Source: Escherichia phage vB_EcoM_Shinka | Sequence record: MZ502379.1 | Strand: one strand, 5' to 3' | Length of the DNA: 64,000 nucleotides | Shown: one piece after another, positions 2,457-43,116 of the stretch | How positions within the stretch are numbered: position 1 is the stretch's first letter | How the letters are laid out: each line of letters opens with the position of its first letter | Program-made: the position numbers and the translations under genes | Notes under the pieces: generated by a model | Told to the model about the DNA's origin: nothing | Database searches by the model: none | Seen by the model: the letters and a program-made list of their open reading frames with translations, nothing else

Positions 2457-4022
2457 ATGACTATCAAAACTAAAGCTGAACTTTTGAACAAATGGAAGCC
2501 ATTACTGGAAGGTGAAGGTTTACCGGAAATTGCTAATAGCAAACAAGCGATTATCGCTAAAATCTTTGAAAACCAGGAAAAAGATTTCCAGACAGCTCCG
2601 GAATATAAAGACGAAAAAATTGCTCAGGCATTCGGTTCTTTCTTAACAGAAGCTGAAATCGGTGGTGACCACGGTTACAATGCTACCAACATCGCTGCAG
2701 GTCAGACTTCTGGAGCAGTAACTCAGATTGGCCCAGCTGTTATGGGTATGGTACGTCGTGCTATTCCTAACCTGATTGCTTTCGATATTTGTGGTGTTCA
2801 GCCAATGAACAGCCCGACTGGCCAAGTATTCGCACTGCGCGCAGTATATGGTAAAGACCCAATCGCTTCCGGTGCTAAAGAAGCATTCCACCCAATGTAT
2901 GGTCCAGATGCAATGTTCTCTGGTCAGGGTGCTGCTAAGAAATTCGCTGCTTTGAAAGCAAGTGATACTCTTGAAGTCGGAACTATTTACACTCACTTCT
3001 TCCAGGAAACTGGTACAGTATATCTGCAAGCTACAGAAGTTAAACAAATTGATTCAAGCGCATCTGACGCAGACAAATTAGATGCTGAAATTAAGAAACA
3101 AATGGAAGCTGGTGTACTGGTAGAAATCGCTGAAGGTATGGCTACTTCTATCGCTGAACTTCAGGAAGGTTTTAACGGTTCTACCGATAACCCATGGAAT
3201 GAAATGGGCTTCCGTATCGATAAGCAAGTTATCGAAGCTAAATCTCGTCAGCTGAAAGCTGCTTACTCTATTGAATTAGCACAAGACCTTCGCGCTGTTC
3301 ACGGTATGGATGCTGATGCTGAACTGTCTGGTATTCTGGCTACCGAAATTATGCTGGAAATCAACCGCGAAGTTGTTGATTGGATTAACTACTCCGCTCA
3401 GGTTGGTAAATCTGGTATGACCCTGACTCCGGGTTCTAAAGCTGGTGTATTTGACTTCCAGGACCCAATCGATATTCGTGGTGCTCGCTGGGCAGGTGAA
3501 TCCTTTAAAGCTCTGTTGTTCCAGATTGACAAAGAAGCAGTTGAAATTGCTCGTCAGACTGGTCGCGGCGAAGGTAACTTCATTATCGCTTCCCGTAACG
3601 TAGTTAACGTTCTGGCTTCAGTTGATACTGGCATTTCTTATGCTGCACAGGGTCTGGCTACCGGCTTCAACACTGATACTACCAAGTCAGTATTTGCTGG
3701 TGTTCTGGGTGGTAAATACCGCGTATATATCGACCAGTATGCTAAACAGGATTATTTCACTGTAGGTTATAAAGGTCCGAACGAAATGGATGCTGGTATT
3801 TACTATGCTCCATATGTAGCTCTGACTCCGCTGCGTGGTTCCGATCCGAAGAACTTCCAACCGGTAATGGGATTCAAAACTCGTTACGGTATCGGTATCA
3901 ACCCATTTGCAGAATCCGCTGCTCAGGCTCCGGCTTCTCGCATTCAGAGCGGTATGCCTTCTATTCTGAATAGCCTTGGTAAAAACGCTTACTTCCGCCG
4001 TGTATATGTTAAAGGTATCTAA
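2457..4022 (+). CDS. 23: Major capsid protein gp23
   Basis: 521 aa, recognised T4 gp23 sequence (MTIKTKAELLNKWKPLLEGEG...). Confidence 0.95.
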   Translation: MTIKTKAELLNKWKPLLEGEGLPEIANSKQAIIAKIFENQEKDFQTAPEYKDEKIAQAFGSFLTEAEIGGDHGYNATNIAAGQTSGAVTQIGPAVMGMVRRAIPNLIAFDICGVQPMNSPTGQVFALRAVYGKDPIASGAKEAFHPMYGPDAMFSGQGAAKKFAALKASDTLEVGTIYTHFFQETGTVYLQATEVKQIDSSASDADKLDAEIKKQMEAGVLVEIAEGMATSIAELQEGFNGSTDNPWNEMGFRIDKQVIEAKSRQLKAAYSIELAQDLRAVHGMDADAELSGILATEIMLEINREVVDWINYSAQVGKSGMTLTPGSKAGVFDFQDPIDIRGARWAGESFKALLFQIDKEAVEIARQTGRGEGNFIIASRNVVNVLASVDTGISYAAQGLATGFNTDTTKSVFAGVLGGKYRVYIDQYAKQDYFTVGYKGPNEMDAGIYYAPYVALTPLRGSDPKNFQPVMGFKTRYGIGINPFAESAAQAPASRIQSGMPSILNSLGKNAYFRRVYVKGI

Positions 4023-34554: not shown

Positions 34555-35178
34555 AAAGTTTTAATAACCTCTATAATATCGTCTTGAGAAAGACCGTTAA
34601 TTAAAATATGATGTTCAGCCGGAGATTTAGAAATTTTAAAGCATGCCTCAACATCTTCTGCCATATCCGATGCGCTACGATTTGGATTACTAATTCCAAG
34701 ACGATGTTTTCCCGTTAAAGGATTAACGATGATATAGCATTTCAGCCGGAGATTTAGAAATTTTAAAGCATGCCTCAACATCTTCTGCCATATCCGATGC
34801 GCTACGATTTGGATTACTAATTCCAAGACGATGTTTTCCCGTTAAAGGATTAACGATGATATAGCATTTACAGTTGTTAATATGAACATTAGGTTGAGTC
34901 TGATTAATGAACACATCGCAATCATATTTCGCAAGCTGATTTTCTAAAAAGACTTTCATCTCCTCAACCGCATCAGGAAGCATATCACGGGCTTGCTCAA
35001 GACGACGATTTCGATATTCTTTAATGGTCGTTTTCCGCTTGACTTGCTTAGCTAAATCTTTCTTAAGATCGGTGATATATCCAACTCGACGATTTCCTTT
35101 AAATACAGAAATCCCATCTGTAGTATCACCGTATGCTTCAACGACCATTTCAGTAGTAATAAGCTGCAAATCCATCAT
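34545..35178 (-). pseudogene. alc: alc (host-transcription inhibitor) disrupted by a 127-bp tandem duplication
   Basis: Two overlapping ORFs (34723..35178 and 34545..34826) share an identical 43-aa segment in different frames; collapsing the duplication restores one ORF of about 167 codons at the T4 alc position. Confidence 0.6.
34614..34869. repeat. Perfect head-to-tail tandem duplication, 2 x 127 bp
   Basis: Copy 1 about 34614..34742 and copy 2 about 34741..34869 read as identical; junction shares short cag microhomology. Confidence 0.85.
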
Positions 35179-36854: not shown

Positions 36855-38033
36855 TTAAAAATATTTTTTAAAACTCATCATAACTTTATCATCAACATCA
36901 TTATCAATCTGTGCTACAAGGTAAGATGACAGTTCTACTTCTTGCGGTGCAGATTGAACATTATCAGAATTAAGGTATTCACGAATCCAAGGATATGGAT
37001 GTTTAACCGGAGCATCGGTAATTGGACATGGAAGACCACACTGTTTCATACGAGATACAGTTAAGTAATCAATAAAGCTCCACATGCTATTTGTATTTAA
37101 TCCAGGAACATCGCCATCTTTAAATAAATGAACTGCCCAATCTTTTTCTTGGCGGTTAACTTCCATGAAAATATCAACTGCTTCTTGTTCACACTCTTGA
37201 GCAATTTTAACCCATTCATCGCCATCAGTACCGGATTGAAGTTGACGAATAATATATTGGGTGCCTTTAAGGTGAAGCTGCTCATCACGTGCAATGAACT
37301 TCATAATCTTGGCATTACCTTCCATGATTTCCATGTTCTTGTGGAAGTTAAAGGTACATGCAAAAGATACATAAAAGCGGATAGCTTCCAATGCGTTGAT
37401 TACGTGCAGGCAGAGGTAAAGAGATTTCATTAGTGCTCGTTTAGCTTCGGCTTCTTGTTTAATAGCTCGATTTAAACGAAAATCAGCATCAGGAGATTCT
37501 TTAGCTAGTTCTACAAATTCTTTAGCATTTTCCCATTCACGGGTCTTCTTAAGAACATCATCGTAATAGCGACCAATGGACTCGGCGCGTTTCATAATAT
37601 CTTCATCTAATACAATCTCATCAAATACTTTTGACGGATCAGTATAAAGATTTCGCATAATATGAGTGTATGAACGACTGTGAATAGTTTCGCTGAAAGT
37701 CCATGTAGCAACCCATGTATCAAGGCTTGGATCTGAAATTAACGACATAAGTACAGCAGACGGCGCACGACCCTGAATGCTATCCAAAAGTGATTGATAC
37801 TTCAGGTTATTAGTAAAAATATCTTGCTGATATTGAGGAAGCTTGTTAAATTGTGCAGCATCCATCATTAAGTTTACTTCTTCAGGACGCCAGAAAAATG
37901 ATAACTGCTTTTCGGTTAAATCTTCAAAAACTTTATGGCGTTGAATATCATAACGCGCAATACCAAGACCTGAACCGAAGAACATAGGTTCTTTTAAAAC
38001 ATCAACTGGATTTGTATTAAAAACTGTGCTCAT
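36855..38033 (-). CDS. nrdB: Ribonucleotide reductase beta subunit NrdB (continuous, no intron)
   Basis: 392-aa uninterrupted ORF, recognised NrdB sequence. Confidence 0.9.
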   Translation of the reverse strand: MSTVFNTNPVDVLKEPMFFGSGLGIARYDIQRHKVFEDLTEKQLSFFWRPEEVNLMMDAAQFNKLPQYQQDIFTNNLKYQSLLDSIQGRAPSAVLMSLISDPSLDTWVATWTFSETIHSRSYTHIMRNLYTDPSKVFDEIVLDEDIMKRAESIGRYYDDVLKKTREWENAKEFVELAKESPDADFRLNRAIKQEAEAKRALMKSLYLCLHVINALEAIRFYVSFACTFNFHKNMEIMEGNAKIMKFIARDEQLHLKGTQYIIRQLQSGTDGDEWVKIAQECEQEAVDIFMEVNRQEKDWAVHLFKDGDVPGLNTNSMWSFIDYLTVSRMKQCGLPCPITDAPVKHPYPWIREYLNSDNVQSAPQEVELSSYLVAQIDNDVDDKVMMSFKKYF

Positions 38034-38084
38034 AAATTTTCCGCTTAGTTAATAGATAGTGACTCGTCCGTGAGTCAAATTATA

Positions 38085-40349
38085 TCATAATTTACAGGAT
38101 GAACAATCTTCAGCTTTTGGAGTTTCTATTTCATAATCATCAGTACCAGAACCGTCGCGGGTATTATGATAATAGAAATTTTTTCCGCCAAAATACCAAA
38201 AATACAAAAGGTCATCAATCATTATTGACATTGGAACCTTTCCTTTTGGAAAAATCTGCGGGTCATAATATGTATTTGCTGAAGCTGATTGACATACCCA
38301 TTTAAGCATAATAGCTACCTGCGTAAGATAAGGTTTATTACCTTTCTTAGCTAATTTCCACGTATAATCATAGAGGTCTATGTTATGCTCAATATTGGGC
38401 ACGACTTGATTAAAGGAACCCTCTTTTGATTCTTTAACAGAGACTGGTCCACGTGGAGGCTCGATACCGTTTGTACTGTTAGAAACTTGTGAAGATGACT
38501 CACATGGCATAAGTGCTGATAATGTGCTATTACGGATGCCAAAGAGCTTAAGGTCTTCCCGCAGCGACGACCAGTCACAAACGTATTTTGGAGCTGCGAT
38601 TTGGTCAATCTTTTTATTGTACCAGTCGATAGGTAATTCGCCTCGAGACCAACGAGTGTCTGAATAATATTCGCAAGGTCCTTTTTCTTTGGCGAGCTTA
38701 ATGGATGCTTTAATGAGTCCATACTGCAATCTCTCAAATAGTTCATGTGTTAAATCGTTAGCATCTTCATAAGAAGCAAAGTTACTTGCCAGCCAAGCTG
38801 CATAGTTGGTAACACCTACACCGAGGTTACGACGCTTTTTAGCTTTTTCTGCTTCAGGAACTGGATATCCTTGGTAATCCAACAGATTATCAAGAGCACG
38901 AACTTGAACTTCTGCCAATTCATTAATTTTATCTTGGTCTTGCCAGTCAAAATTATCTAGTACGAATGCAGAGAGAGTACACAATCCAATTTCAGCATCA
39001 GGACTATTCACATCATTTGTTGGAATAGCAATTTCACAACACAAGTTACTCTGACGAATAGGCGCCTTTTCACGAATAAACGGAGTATAGTTATTCGTAT
39101 TATCAATGAACTGCACATAAATCCTTGCGGTTCCTGAACGTTCAGTCATGAGCAATTCAAATAGTTCACGGGCTTTAATACGCTTTTTACGAATATTAGG
39201 GTCTTTTTCTGCTGCTTCGTATAATTCACGGAAACGGTTTTGGTCTTTAAAATAAGAATAATAAAGCTCGCCACCCATTTCATGCGGACTGAACAAAGTA
39301 ATGTAATCGTTCTTTCCGAATCGTTCCATCATCAAATCATTCAGCTGAACACCATAATCCATATGACGAATGCGGTTTTCTTCTACGCCTTTGTTATTTT
39401 TCAAAACGAGAAGATTTTCAACTTCCAAATGCCAAATAGGATAATAAGCAGTAGCAGCGCCGCCACGAATTCCACCCTGTGAGCATGATTTAACAGCAGT
39501 CTGAAAATGTTTCCAAAAAGGAATAACACCAGTATGACGCACTTCACCCATGCCAATCTTAGAACCTTCGGCACGAATCATACCAACGTTAATACCAATT
39601 CCAGCACGTTTGGAGATATATTCAACAATTGAAGCGGAAGCCTTGTTGATAGACTTCAGCGAATCACCTGCCTCAATAACAACGCATGAACTAAATTGCC
39701 GAGTTGGAGTACGACAACCGGCCATAATAGGAGTTGGCAATGAAATCTGTCGAGTAGATACTGCTTCATAAAAACGAATAACATGTTTTAATCTATCAAC
39801 AGGTTCATCTTGATGCAATGCCATTCCAATAGTCATAAATGCAAACTGTGGAGTTTCATAAATTTGACCAGTGGTTTTATCTTTAACTAAATATTTTTCT
39901 TTTAATTGCATCGCCCCGGAATAAGTAAATTCCATATCCCGTTCGTGCTTAATTTTTGATTCTAAAAATGTAATTTCTTCTGCTGAATATTTTGACAACA
40001 ATTCAGGGTCATATTTACCTTCATTTACACAGTAAGAAATATGGTCAATAAATGAACGTGGTTCATACTGCCCATAAACATGCTTACGAAGAGCGAACAT
40101 TAAACAGCGTGCAGCTACATATTGATAATCAGGCTCTTCAACCGAAATAGAATTCGCAGCGGCCTTAATGACAATAGTCTGAATATCATCAGTTGTCATT
40201 CCATCACGGAGATAAGATTTAATATTTTCATATAATTCATAAGGATCTACTGATGTTCCTTCAGCTGCCCAAGATAAAACTTTAATAATTTTTTGCGGGT
40301 CAAAGCTCTGAGAAACACCACTACTTTTGATAACATTAATTAATTGCAT
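38085..40349 (-). CDS. nrdA: Ribonucleotide reductase alpha subunit NrdA
   Basis: 754 aa as in T4. Confidence 0.95.
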   Translation of the reverse strand: MQLINVIKSSGVSQSFDPQKIIKVLSWAAEGTSVDPYELYENIKSYLRDGMTTDDIQTIVIKAAANSISVEEPDYQYVAARCLMFALRKHVYGQYEPRSFIDHISYCVNEGKYDPELLSKYSAEEITFLESKIKHERDMEFTYSGAMQLKEKYLVKDKTTGQIYETPQFAFMTIGMALHQDEPVDRLKHVIRFYEAVSTRQISLPTPIMAGCRTPTRQFSSCVVIEAGDSLKSINKASASIVEYISKRAGIGINVGMIRAEGSKIGMGEVRHTGVIPFWKHFQTAVKSCSQGGIRGGAATAYYPIWHLEVENLLVLKNNKGVEENRIRHMDYGVQLNDLMMERFGKNDYITLFSPHEMGGELYYSYFKDQNRFRELYEAAEKDPNIRKKRIKARELFELLMTERSGTARIYVQFIDNTNNYTPFIREKAPIRQSNLCCEIAIPTNDVNSPDAEIGLCTLSAFVLDNFDWQDQDKINELAEVQVRALDNLLDYQGYPVPEAEKAKKRRNLGVGVTNYAAWLASNFASYEDANDLTHELFERLQYGLIKASIKLAKEKGPCEYYSDTRWSRGELPIDWYNKKIDQIAAPKYVCDWSSLREDLKLFGIRNSTLSALMPCESSSQVSNSTNGIEPPRGPVSVKESKEGSFNQVVPNIEHNIDLYDYTWKLAKKGNKPYLTQVAIMLKWVCQSASANTYYDPQIFPKGKVPMSIMIDDLLYFWYFGGKNFYYHNTRDGSGTDDYEIETPKAEDCSSCKL

Positions 40350-40906: not shown

Positions 40907-41218
40907 TTACACCGCCATTTTTCCTTTCAAGACGCCGTGGGACTGATAATCTTTGAGAACGAAATCTTTAGGCCTGAGTTTAAGAATGTATTCCAATTGT
41001 TCTTTAGTAGAAAGATAGCGGAATTTATAAGGCAATCCGCCTATTACCAGTTCACAAAGCTCTTTAGGTTCACGACGCAAAATTTCTTTACATTGTTCTA
41101 CGTGATTCATATAGATATGAGTATTACCACCGGAAAATATCAAATCTCCCGGAATAAGATTACACATCTTAGCTACAATATGAACTAACGTAGCATATGA
41201 TGCAATATTAAATGGAAG
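40907..41218 (-). CDS. td: Thymidylate synthase, exon 2
   Basis: Encodes LPFNIASYATLVH...KGKMAV; joins exon 1 to give a 286-aa TS. Confidence 0.85.
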   Translation of the reverse strand, partial: LPFNIASYATLVHIVAKMCNLIPGDLIFSGGNTHIYMNHVEQCKEILRREPKELCELVIGGLPYKFRYLSTKEQLEYILKLRPKDFVLKDYQSHGVLKGKMAV

Positions 41219-41538
41219 CATTATGTTCAGATAAGGTCGTTAATCTTACCCCGGAATTATATCCAGCTGCATGTCACCATGCAGATCAGACTATATCTCC
41301 AACTTGTTAAAGCAAGTTGTCTATCGTTTCGAGTCACTTGACCCTACTCCCCAAAGGGATAGTCGTTAGGCATTTATGTAGAACCAATTCCATTTATCAG
41401 ATTTTACACGATAAGTAACTAATCCTGATGAAATTATTAAAGGGTAGTCCTACAATTTAGCACGGGATTGTCTACTAGAGAGGTTCCCCGTTTAGATAGA
41501 TTACAAGTATAAGTCACCTTATACTCAGGCCTCAATTA
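41219..41538 (-). ncRNA. Group I self-splicing intron in td, lacking an intact homing-endonuclease ORF
   Basis: 320 nt between TS exons; begins with in-frame UAA after exon-1 Gly codon, ends ...cauaaug; sequence matches T4 td intron core as I recall it; no ORF over 20 codons. Confidence 0.8.
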
Positions 41539-42086
41539 ACCCAAGAAAACATCTACTGATCGTTGATACCACTGCAAATCCAAATAGCCATTACGCACAT
41601 TAAACTGATAGAACATATGACAAGGCGGTAATGCCATCTGCTTGAGTTCAGCTGGATTCCATGCTGAAACAATTTGACGCCTATCATTTGGCAATTTTTT
41701 AATACGATCAATAACTTCTATAATTTGGTCTACACCGCCAAAATCACGCCACTGTTTTCCATAAATTGGACCAAGTTCACCGCTATGGTATCCTAAATCT
41801 TTTGCTTGATTTTCGTAATTTTCATCCCAGACTGTTTTGCCTTGAATTAATGAATTATGTTGAATTAATCGCAAATCATTGACATTTGTGCTTCCCGATA
41901 AAAACCAAAGCAGCTCAGCAATGCAAGCTTTCCAGGCGAGCTTCTTAGTTGTTACTGCAGGAAAACCTTTAGTTAAATCCCAGCGTAATTTAGTACCGAA
42001 CAAAGCAATTGTTCCTGTGCCTGTTCGGTCATCGGTTTCGTAGCCATTTTCCAGGATATCTTTAATTAAAAATTGGTATTGTTTCA

Positions 42087-42087
<1 letters not shown>
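41539..42087 (-). CDS. td: Thymidylate synthase, exon 1
   Basis: 183 aa from MKQYQ to DVFLG; active-site PPCH present; track ORF begins at an upstream TTG. Confidence 0.85.

Positions 42088-43116
<1,029 letters not shown>

Follow-up and report, generated by a model that had tools for sequence, protein, structure and literature searches.

A 320-nt td group I intron in a T4-like phage retains only the 3′ end of the I-TevI reading frame

Introduction

The thymidylate synthase gene (td) of phage T4 is split by a 1016-nt intron that encodes the homing endonuclease I-TevI. In Escherichia phage vB_EcoM_Shinka (sequence record MZ502379.1), td is interrupted by 320 nt only, which raises the question of what this short segment is, how it is related to the full-length introns and whether td can still be expressed. 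The decay of homing-endonuclease genes inside functional introns is part of their textbook life cycle (PMC5009752). A stretch of 64,000 nt of this genome (the window) was analysed here, starting from a sequence-only reading in which the segment was taken for a td intron that had lost most of its endonuclease gene. The best explanation, and a very probable one, is that this is the td self-splicing group I intron of a T4-like phage from which the I-TevI gene was removed by a single 696-nt deletion in the L6a loop.

Results

The td locus and its neighbourhood

The window is part of a T4-like (Tequatrovirus) genome, for which vB_EcoM-101112UKE3-1 (MZ234013; hereafter UKE3-1) is the best public match over 24 kb, with 97.4% identity. 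Both the list of open reading frames and the reading of the sequence place td and its intron on the minus strand, where the gene order is frd (42290..42871), a 68-aa ORF, td, nrdA.2, nrdA.1, nrdA (38085..40349), nrdB (36855..38033), a GIY-YIG endonuclease gene that is probably denA, and the RNA ligase gene. Exon 1 of td (42087..41539, minus strand) comprises 183 codons and ends in GAT GTT TTC TTG GGT (DVFLG) at 41539. An in-frame UAA at 41538-41536 opens the intron (41538..41219, minus strand) and CAUAAUG closes it, the terminal G being at 41219. Exon 2 (41218..40907, minus strand) opens with CTT CCA TTT AAT, the LPFN of LPFNIASY, and runs to the stop codon. These boundaries are the ones proposed in the sequence-only reading, which had td split after the Gly of DVFLG and resumed at LPFN. 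Both exons are open, and the spliced translation of 286 aa aligns over residues 1-286 with T4 thymidylate synthase (PDB 1TIS, E 8.7e-191), with 271 of 286 residues identical and no gap at the exon junction between SVDVFLG and LPFNIASY. The intron thus sits at the canonical td insertion site, at the same exon-junction position as in T4, and the expected ligated junction reads GUUUUCUUGGGU followed directly by CUUCCAUUUAAU (in RNA, UUGGGU followed by CUUCCA).

The neighbouring nrdB gene is a single uninterrupted ORF of 392 aa on the minus strand; together with the occurrence of one Rfam group I match in the whole window, this bears out the earlier observation that nrdB is intronless here. It is separated from nrdA by 51 nt, so that no mobE/hef-type endonuclease gene lies between them. 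At this position the closest relative, UKE3-1, has a 243-aa homing endonuclease gene, and T4 has mobE. The td-nrdA-nrdB block of the window is free of endonuclease genes, with no I-TevI, none between nrdA and nrdB, and no nrdB intron. A separate feature of the window is a perfect 127-nt tandem duplication in alc that is absent from the 8 closest relatives, and some caution about the assembly of the window is therefore reasonable.

The group I ribozyme core is complete

The interruption is a td group I intron. The Rfam covariance model RF00028 (group I intron) matched 41548..41267 on the minus strand, scoring 66.9 bits where the gathering threshold is 50 (E 8.5e-15) and covering model positions 1-253 of 253, and this was the sole Rfam group I intron match in the 64-kb window. 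The sequence-only reading, which likened the segment to the T4 td intron core, had named such a search as a check; the full-model match agrees with that assignment, as does the comparison with the full-length, T4-type intron of phage fFiEco06, from which the window intron differs at 3 of the 320 retained positions. The canonical td structure was then written onto the intron, and all 79 of its 79 pairs, from P1 to P9.2, were standard; they include the P3/P7 pseudoknot, the P4-P6 domain, P7.1 (3 bp) and P7.2 (5 bp). The ribozyme core has therefore been kept, as had been supposed.

All elements described below lie on the minus strand. In P1 (41525..41544), the 6 nt at the 3′ end of exon 1 (UUGGGU) pair with the internal guide sequence at intron nt 9-14, so that exon U(-1) faces intron G9 in a U.G wobble at the 5′ splice site; at the other end, the intron terminates in AAUG at 41219. 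The 5′ part of the ribozyme (intron nt 1-94, 41445..41538) contains the 3′ strand of P1, P2, the 5′ strand of P3, P4, P5 and the 5′ strands of P6 and P6a, and is identical to T4-type introns except at position 94. It is followed by a new, short L6a loop of 58 nt (nt 95-152, 41387..41444), which by structure mapping stands in for the ORF-bearing loop of about 750 nt of the full-length intron. The 3′ strands of P6a (nt 153-162) and P6 (nt 168-169) occupy 41370..41386 and derive from I-TevI codons W239 to A245. P7 (nt 175-180 with 245-250) encloses P7.1, P7.2, the 3′ strand of P3 and P8 at 41289..41364, a region in which both the P3/P7 pseudoknot and the P7.1/P7.2 insertion of the IA type have been preserved. 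The peripheral helices P9, P9.1 and P9.2 (nt 255-309, 41230..41284) were assigned from structure mapping, the pair check and the variant alignment. The intron has the traits of the IA td type, namely the extra P7.1/P7.2 helices between P7 and the 3′ strand of P3 and the insertion between UUGGGU and CU; the T4 td intron belongs to subgroup IA2. The first base pair of P6, G78:C865 in T4 numbering (PMC2729099), becomes G78:C169 here, since T4 C865 maps to C169 (865-696=169).

A minimum-free-energy fold recovered P2, P3, P4, P5, P6/P6a, P7.1, P7.2, P8, P9 and P9.1 (z = -2.6), with P6a at 10 bp. Nine distinct natural td introns, the full-length ones trimmed to the retained part, were aligned, and standard pairs were found in 99.9% of the pair cells, versus 29-44% in controls in which the 3′ partners were slid by 1-3 columns. 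Across these nine variants, 6 pairs vary on one side and stay paired, 1 cell is unpaired, and one compensatory change (A-U to U-A in P8) is present in phage e11/2. Natural variants of P1 also retain pairing through changes on both strands (a U-A/U.G swap, and an exon G to A change giving A-U). The td intron sequences are 98% identical, which weakens the shuffle control for covariation, and its outcome, in which 49 of 500 shuffles reach the observed score, serves as a consistency check and not as proof.

A 696-nt deletion leaves codons 224-245 of I-TevI

The part of the endonuclease gene that is still present extends over 41434..41366 on the minus strand and consists of codons 224-245 and the UAA stop. 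Its translation, ISSGLVTYRVKSDKWNWFYINA, agrees at every residue with positions 224-245 of the I-TevI annotated in T4 and fFiEco06, and a tblastn search of the window with I-TevI returned the same residues as a 22/22 match (E about 2e-9), so that the suspected C-terminus of I-TevI is indeed encoded there. The same search revealed no further I-TevI segment anywhere in the 64 kb; weak matches near 28.0 kb and at 58.5-59.0 kb were rejected, as they are not GIY-YIG genes. An intact endonuclease ORF with its GIY-YIG domain, linker/zinc finger and C-terminal DNA-binding domain is absent, codons 1-223 and the start codon having been deleted.

Alignment with 1016-nt introns sets the loss, previously put at about 0.7 kb, at 696 nt, all within the L6a loop. 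Intron nt 1-105 are fused to the last 215 nt of the full-length intron, and the deleted stretch begins 26 nt before the I-TevI start codon and ends with codon 223. The junction, at the boundary of intron nt 105 and 106 (41433..41434, minus strand), joins CCCUUUAAUAA to UUUCAUCAGG and was mapped on the full-length introns of fFiEco06, T4, TuIa, SQ17, AV118 and PTE-Eco05. Exact microhomology at the junction amounts to 2 nt, AA. Slippage between TTTAA repeats was considered and discarded, both because of this short microhomology and because the predicted product, CCCTTTAAAATTTC, differs from the observed sequence. The deletion looks like the outcome of illegitimate recombination in an A/T-rich stretch, and not of slippage between long repeats.

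The remnant is not a gene, since its frame lacks a start codon and is closed by a stop 5 codons upstream, and in phage 235Ecol030PP the frame is broken by a 1-nt deletion. This break also shows that no coding constraint acts on the remnant; substitutions are present in it in other carriers. In the full-length intron, the last 20 nt of the I-TevI ORF contribute to P6a, P6 and P7 (PMC3073962), and in the window the last codons of the remnant, UGG UUC UAC AUA AAU GCC, form the 3′ strands of P6a and P6. Because the final nucleotides of the ORF (about 20) are part of the P6a/P6 core, any viable deletion must keep them. The other nucleotides of the remnant, about 45, lie in the new L6a loop, outside the core helices. 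The statement that the intron contains no ORF longer than about 20 codons was too strict, as mechanically called ORFs of 20-33 codons (ATG, GTG or TTG starts) overlap it on both strands; none of them resembles I-TevI, and they are regarded as spurious.

Distribution and annotation of the 320-nt allele

Megablast detected td in about 657 phage records, and the 3′ part of its intron is present in 212 records. The exact deletion junction is contiguous in 16 public phage records: C2-3, 101112UKE3-1, PYps55T, MLP2, UPWr_E2, Pinarejo, SYGD1, U115, ESh30, HP3 (two records), HP3.1, HP3.2, L14, Elenatom and 235Ecol030PP. These records come from different laboratories, hosts (E. coli, Shigella and Yersinia) and countries. 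The 320-nt intron of the window is 100% identical to that of MZ234013, and a 520-nt query consisting of the intron and 100 nt of each exon was found at 100% identity in MZ234013, MT515756, OK148441 and PP418986. A search of IMG/VR with the exact junction 20-mer gave 0 matches. In all four 320-nt carriers whose annotation was examined (4/4), td is entered as two separate 'thymidylate synthase' CDS with no intron marked; two of these, UKE3-1 and Elenatom, also list three hypothetical proteins within the intron.

An independent deletion in the same loop

A different short form of the td intron, of 445 or 446 nt, is present in 7 records, which include G28, e11/2 (vB_EcoM_112), F1 and FN. These introns have an in-frame deletion of 570-571 nt between exact 9-nt repeats, CATTTTAAA, both of which encode RHFK; the I-TevI start codon is retained and the product is a 55-aa stub. 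This deletion is an event independent of the 320-nt one. Like the window intron, the 445/446-nt introns are natural, have a gutted I-TevI gene, an intact core and an intact spliced td, and the right-hand endpoints of the two deletions lie within a few nucleotides of each other. They differ in that their deletion is in frame at 9-nt repeats, the start codon is kept and a 55-aa stub remains.

Origin and mosaic backgrounds

The differences from T4-type introns that flank the junction are A94 and TCA TCA instead of TCG TCT (nt 94, 110 and 113). Full-length introns of 1016 nt that carry A94 and TCA TCA were found in TuIa (AY262157) and in the Mosigvirus phages SQ17, AV118 and PTE-Eco05. The I-TevI of TuIa, SQ17 and AV118 is 88.6% identical to that of T4, and that of PTE-Eco05 is 87.8% identical. 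TuIa had been considered as a partial endonuclease deletion on account of its shorter GenBank record (1517 nt versus 1877), but the record has shorter exons; the intron measures 1016 nt and its ORF is intact, with 245 codons. Compensatory 'healing' of L6a after the deletion (G94A, TCG to TCA and TCT to TCA, both codon changes improving an AUCAG/CUGAU hairpin) was dismissed, since the full-length introns of TuIa, SQ17, AV118 and PTE-Eco05 already carry all three changes. A graded build-up of substitutions within the class of 98.6% identity was also rejected: every short form examined has both substitutions, and the extra mismatch is nt 128.

Six 320-nt (or 319-nt) copies were compared, from the window, UKE3-1, 235Ecol030PP, HP3, Elenatom and C2-3 (the last over a 100-nt junction query), and all have the same junction together with A94 and TCA TCA. 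Three linked substitutions in six copies point to a single origin of the 320-nt allele, the parent being an intron of the TuIa/Mosigvirus type, which shares these bases with every 320-nt copy compared. This putative parent is of full length with an intact 245-codon ORF, whereas the window intron is of the T4/fFiEco06 type except at nt 94, 110 and 113, so that its TuIa-type patch measures at most 73 nt. HP3 and Elenatom are of the TuIa type also at nt 13, 14, 54 and 128 and of the T4 type at nt 6, 146, 187, 253 and 290, and the background of the 235Ecol030PP intron is intermediate. The exons vary as well: exon 1 of HP3 departs from that of the window at 24/300 positions, and exon 2 of 235Ecol030PP does so at 79/300. 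By these comparisons, the 320-nt allele is now in at least three intron/exon backgrounds. Since both intron and exon backgrounds differ between carriers, homologous recombination has moved the deletion between intron alleles.

Discussion

Splicing and mobility of the shortened intron

The 320-nt intron is in all likelihood still competent for splicing, a view that leans on its sequence and on laboratory constructs whose deletion endpoints differ from those seen here. Its core is complete and nearly the same in sequence as the core of working full-length introns. An intact td of 286 aa is encoded by each of the eight short-intron sequences examined (8/8), namely the window and four others with introns of 319/320 nt, and three with introns of 445/446 nt. 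Measured against the window, exon 2 shows as many as 79/300 nucleotide differences in the 320-nt carriers and as many as 101/300 in those with 445/446-nt introns. The preservation of td in all eight despite this divergence of 26-34% argues for continuing purifying selection and is hard to explain unless td is expressed. The gene is dispensable for T4 on thyA+ hosts, and the isolation of viable phages is therefore no proof of splicing. Shortening of P6a is compatible with self-splicing in td constructs (PMC2729099), and the td intron retains activity even after circular permutation within the part of P6a that holds the ORF (PMC8554844).

The RNA would splice by the usual two transesterifications, as in T4: exogenous G would attack after the P1 U.G pair, and the freed 3′-OH of exon 1 would then attack after the terminal G at 41219. 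Ribosomes on unspliced RNA would be halted by the in-frame UAA with which the intron opens. As the I-TevI enzyme is absent, autonomous homing is excluded and the intron would not promote its own spread; it could still enter intronless td alleles by ordinary recombination, and, by analogy with trans homing of the T4 nrdB intron (PMC2790892), a co-infecting phage that provides I-TevI could allow it to be copied into an intronless allele once that allele has been cleaved. The intron occupies and splits the I-TevI target site, so the td allele that carries it should not be cleavable by the I-TevI of a co-infecting phage. Loss of the ORF would also end the conflict between I-TevI translation and intron folding. 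Early translation of I-TevI impairs td splicing (PMC2988022), and because premature translation has this effect, being without the ORF may cost the phage nothing or give it a slight advantage.

Alternative explanations

Inactivation of the intron would give a different picture of the locus, with td a split pseudogene that is tolerated because the host supplies thymidylate. This is very unlikely. That td is non-essential on thyA+ hosts is compatible with it, and the new 58-nt L6a loop is a sequence context outside the laboratory constructs; against this, the pairs of the core are all intact, P6a/L6a tolerates shortening and even circular permutation, and the open exons, close to T4 thymidylate synthase in the window, yield an intact td in each short-intron sequence. 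Slighter still is the chance that the I-TevI tail was kept for a function of its own beyond its overlap with the core, whether that of a small peptide that binds DNA or that of a regulatory element in the RNA or DNA. The tail includes about 45 nt more than the core needs, its residues are part of the DNA-binding region at the C-terminus of I-TevI, and the region of the right-hand endpoint (TTTTAAAA/TTTTGAAA, just before codon 224) is common to two independent deletions. The missing start codon, the in-frame stop 5 codons upstream, the frameshift in 235Ecol030PP and the substitutions in other carriers nevertheless speak against a peptide, and an A/T-rich, recombination-prone site, at which the 445-nt form used its exact 9-nt repeat, explains the common endpoint more simply.

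It could also be asked whether the polarity of change is the reverse, with an ancestral td intron that was never invaded by a homing-endonuclease gene and the full-length form derived from it. Group I introns are thought to have been ORF-less ancestrally and to have been invaded later (PMC3073962), and the core is complete without the ORF. This reading is scarcely credible and is effectively refuted by the 22 consecutive I-TevI codons retained at 100% amino acid identity, about 45 nt of which lie in L6a outside the core helices; by the retained parts, which match full-length introns at all but 3 positions, those 3 being the alleles of an extant full-length lineage; and by the second, different deletion with its 9-nt repeat signature in the same intron. 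Least probable, to the point of being negligible, is an assembly or laboratory artefact, either a collapsed repeat or a contaminating engineered td construct. Laboratory ORF-deletion constructs of td are in wide use, and the alc duplication calls for some caution about the assembly, but the identical junction recurs in the 16 records across laboratories, hosts and countries and in three sequence backgrounds, its haplotype is of the TuIa type and not the T4 sequence used for constructs, and no repeat at the junction is long enough to collapse in assembly. The locus is thus best read as a td group I intron stripped of its endonuclease gene by a deletion.

Relation to known introns

The window intron and the T4 td intron (1016 nt, with I-TevI) share the host gene, the insertion site after the Gly of DVFLG, the UAA start, the CAUAAUG end and the core at every paired position. 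Within the retained 320 nt they differ at four positions close to L6a (a 1-nt indel and nt 94, 110 and 113) and at the unpaired nt 253; the T4 record NC_000866.4 has one extra T in L6a. Unlike its T4 counterpart, the window intron is without 696 nt (the region upstream of the ORF and I-TevI codons 1-223), without a GIY-YIG domain and without the capacity for autonomous homing. Laboratory td ribozymes of roughly 250-400 nt that lack the I-TevI ORF self-splice in vitro and in vivo (PMC2729099, PMC8554844). Such constructs were engineered from T4 and have other endpoints, whereas the 320-nt allele occurs naturally, carries a junction of the TuIa type and is in circulation among wild phages.

Comparable decay is known from other introns. 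In the T4 nrdB intron, I-TevIII is defunct through an internal deletion, and the intron is still inheritable by means of another endonuclease in trans (PMC2790892). Both are T-even group I introns with an endonuclease gene hit by an inactivating internal deletion; the nrdB case differs in the intron, the host gene and the endonuclease family (HNH), and much more of the ORF is retained there. In the group IA intron IVS6 of nrdF in the Bacillus cereus group, the GIY-YIG gene of I-BthII lies in P6a, and the full-length endonuclease gene was kept in 2/11 strains found by sequencing (PMC2248736). Its remnant in strain AH187 would give 37 aa, of which 33 align with the C-terminal part (PMC2248736). 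IVS6 resembles the window intron in having a GIY-YIG gene in P6a of a group IA intron and a remnant that is mainly C-terminal, but it resides in a bacterial chromosome, its intron sequence is unrelated and its remnant retains the first 3 codons. Sandegren & Sjoberg (2004) reportedly found inactivating deletions in several intron endonuclease genes of T-even phages. In the literature searched, no paper on a natural I-TevI-less td intron or on the 320-nt td allele was found.

Implications

A more ambitious interpretation, which we consider rather unlikely, is that the endonuclease-free td intron is a favoured, 'domesticated' allele that is spreading through Tequatrovirus by short-patch recombination. 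If so, td would stay immune to cleavage by I-TevI while shedding the cost of I-TevI, both its interference between translation and folding and 0.7 kb of genome, and this would explain why one ancient deletion is found on a patch of at most 73 nt in several otherwise unrelated intron/exon backgrounds.

The 320-nt td allele is an ordinary case of selfish-gene decay inside an intron, of a kind that is thoroughly known, and it leaves current understanding unchanged. The annotations of td records with the 320-nt intron could be corrected. At least two independent natural 'mini' td introns, of 320 and 445 nt, outline what L6a tolerates, which is useful for td intron engineering, and the mosaic pattern of the 320-nt carriers shows that intron alleles of co-infecting T-even phages recombine over very short patches.

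Natural variants of the td intron

The td introns of phages G28, e11/2 and F1 carry an in-frame deletion of 570-571 nt in the gene for I-TevI, the homing endonuclease of this group I intron. The deletion lies between exact CATTTTAAA repeats, both copies of which encode RHFK, and leaves an intron of 445/446 nt (positions 1446-1890 of locus L003 from G28, and likewise in loci L009 from e11/2 and L010 from F1) with a 55-amino-acid I-TevI stub that is labelled 'homing endonuclease' in RefSeq records. This deletion is a second natural event, independent of the one that gave rise to the 320-nt allele. The 20-nt junction of the latter, CCCTTTAATAATTTCATCAG, occurs in 16 GenBank phage isolate records, and no exact match to it was found in 2.9 million IMG/VR viral contigs.

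The 320-nt intron is unannotated in MZ234013 (phage UKE3-1, the closest relative) and PP925844 (phage Elenatom), and in both records td is entered as two separate 'thymidylate synthase' coding sequences. Moreover, three hypothetical proteins are called within the intron in these records (positions 3104-3427 of the MZ234013 locus and 1401-1724 of the PP925844 locus). The corresponding ORFs span 32-33 codons and are probably spurious gene calls.

Phages TuIa, SQ17 and AV118 harbor an I-TevI variant whose ORF is intact and which differs from that of T4 at 28 of 245 residues. This divergent variant and its intron are found in Mosigvirus (SQ17, AV118) and also in phages classified as Tequatrovirus. 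All three phages carry a G-to-A substitution at exon position -4, which turns a G.U pair of helix P1 into A-U, so that the P1 guide pairing is kept. Near nt 93, in the distal P6a/L6a region, the T4 RefSeq record NC_000866.4 reads GGACTTGCCC, which makes its intron 1017 nt long, whereas all other td introns examined have one T fewer, reading GGACTGCCC or GGACTACCC, and the full-length ones among them measure 1016 nt.

Gene content around td and in alc

The window contains a perfect tandem duplication within alc, whose product inhibits transcription of the host, with a unit of 127 nt and copies at 34614-34740 and 34741-34867 (minus strand; 34614-34867 in all). As the unit length is not divisible by three, alc is split into two ORFs of 151 and 93 amino acids, which have an identical stretch of 42 amino acids in common. 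The eight best public relatives lack the duplication, the 701-nt query spanning 574 nt in them. It may be either an alc-null allele that occurs in nature or an error of assembly.

A 68-amino-acid ORF occupies the interval between frd and td (42087-42293, minus strand). It is present in fFiEco06 and UKE3-1 as well. T4, in which frd directly overlaps td, lacks it, and HP3 and Elenatom have a different ORF of approximately 115-119 amino acids in its place. The 68-amino-acid ORF seems to be an optional neighbour of the intron-bearing td. The spacer between nrdA and nrdB is occupied in T4 by mobE and nrdB.1, and in MZ234013 by a gene for a 243-amino-acid homing endonuclease, whereas in the window it comprises only 51 nt (38034-38084). 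The entire td-nrdA-nrdB block of the window is therefore free of homing-endonuclease genes.
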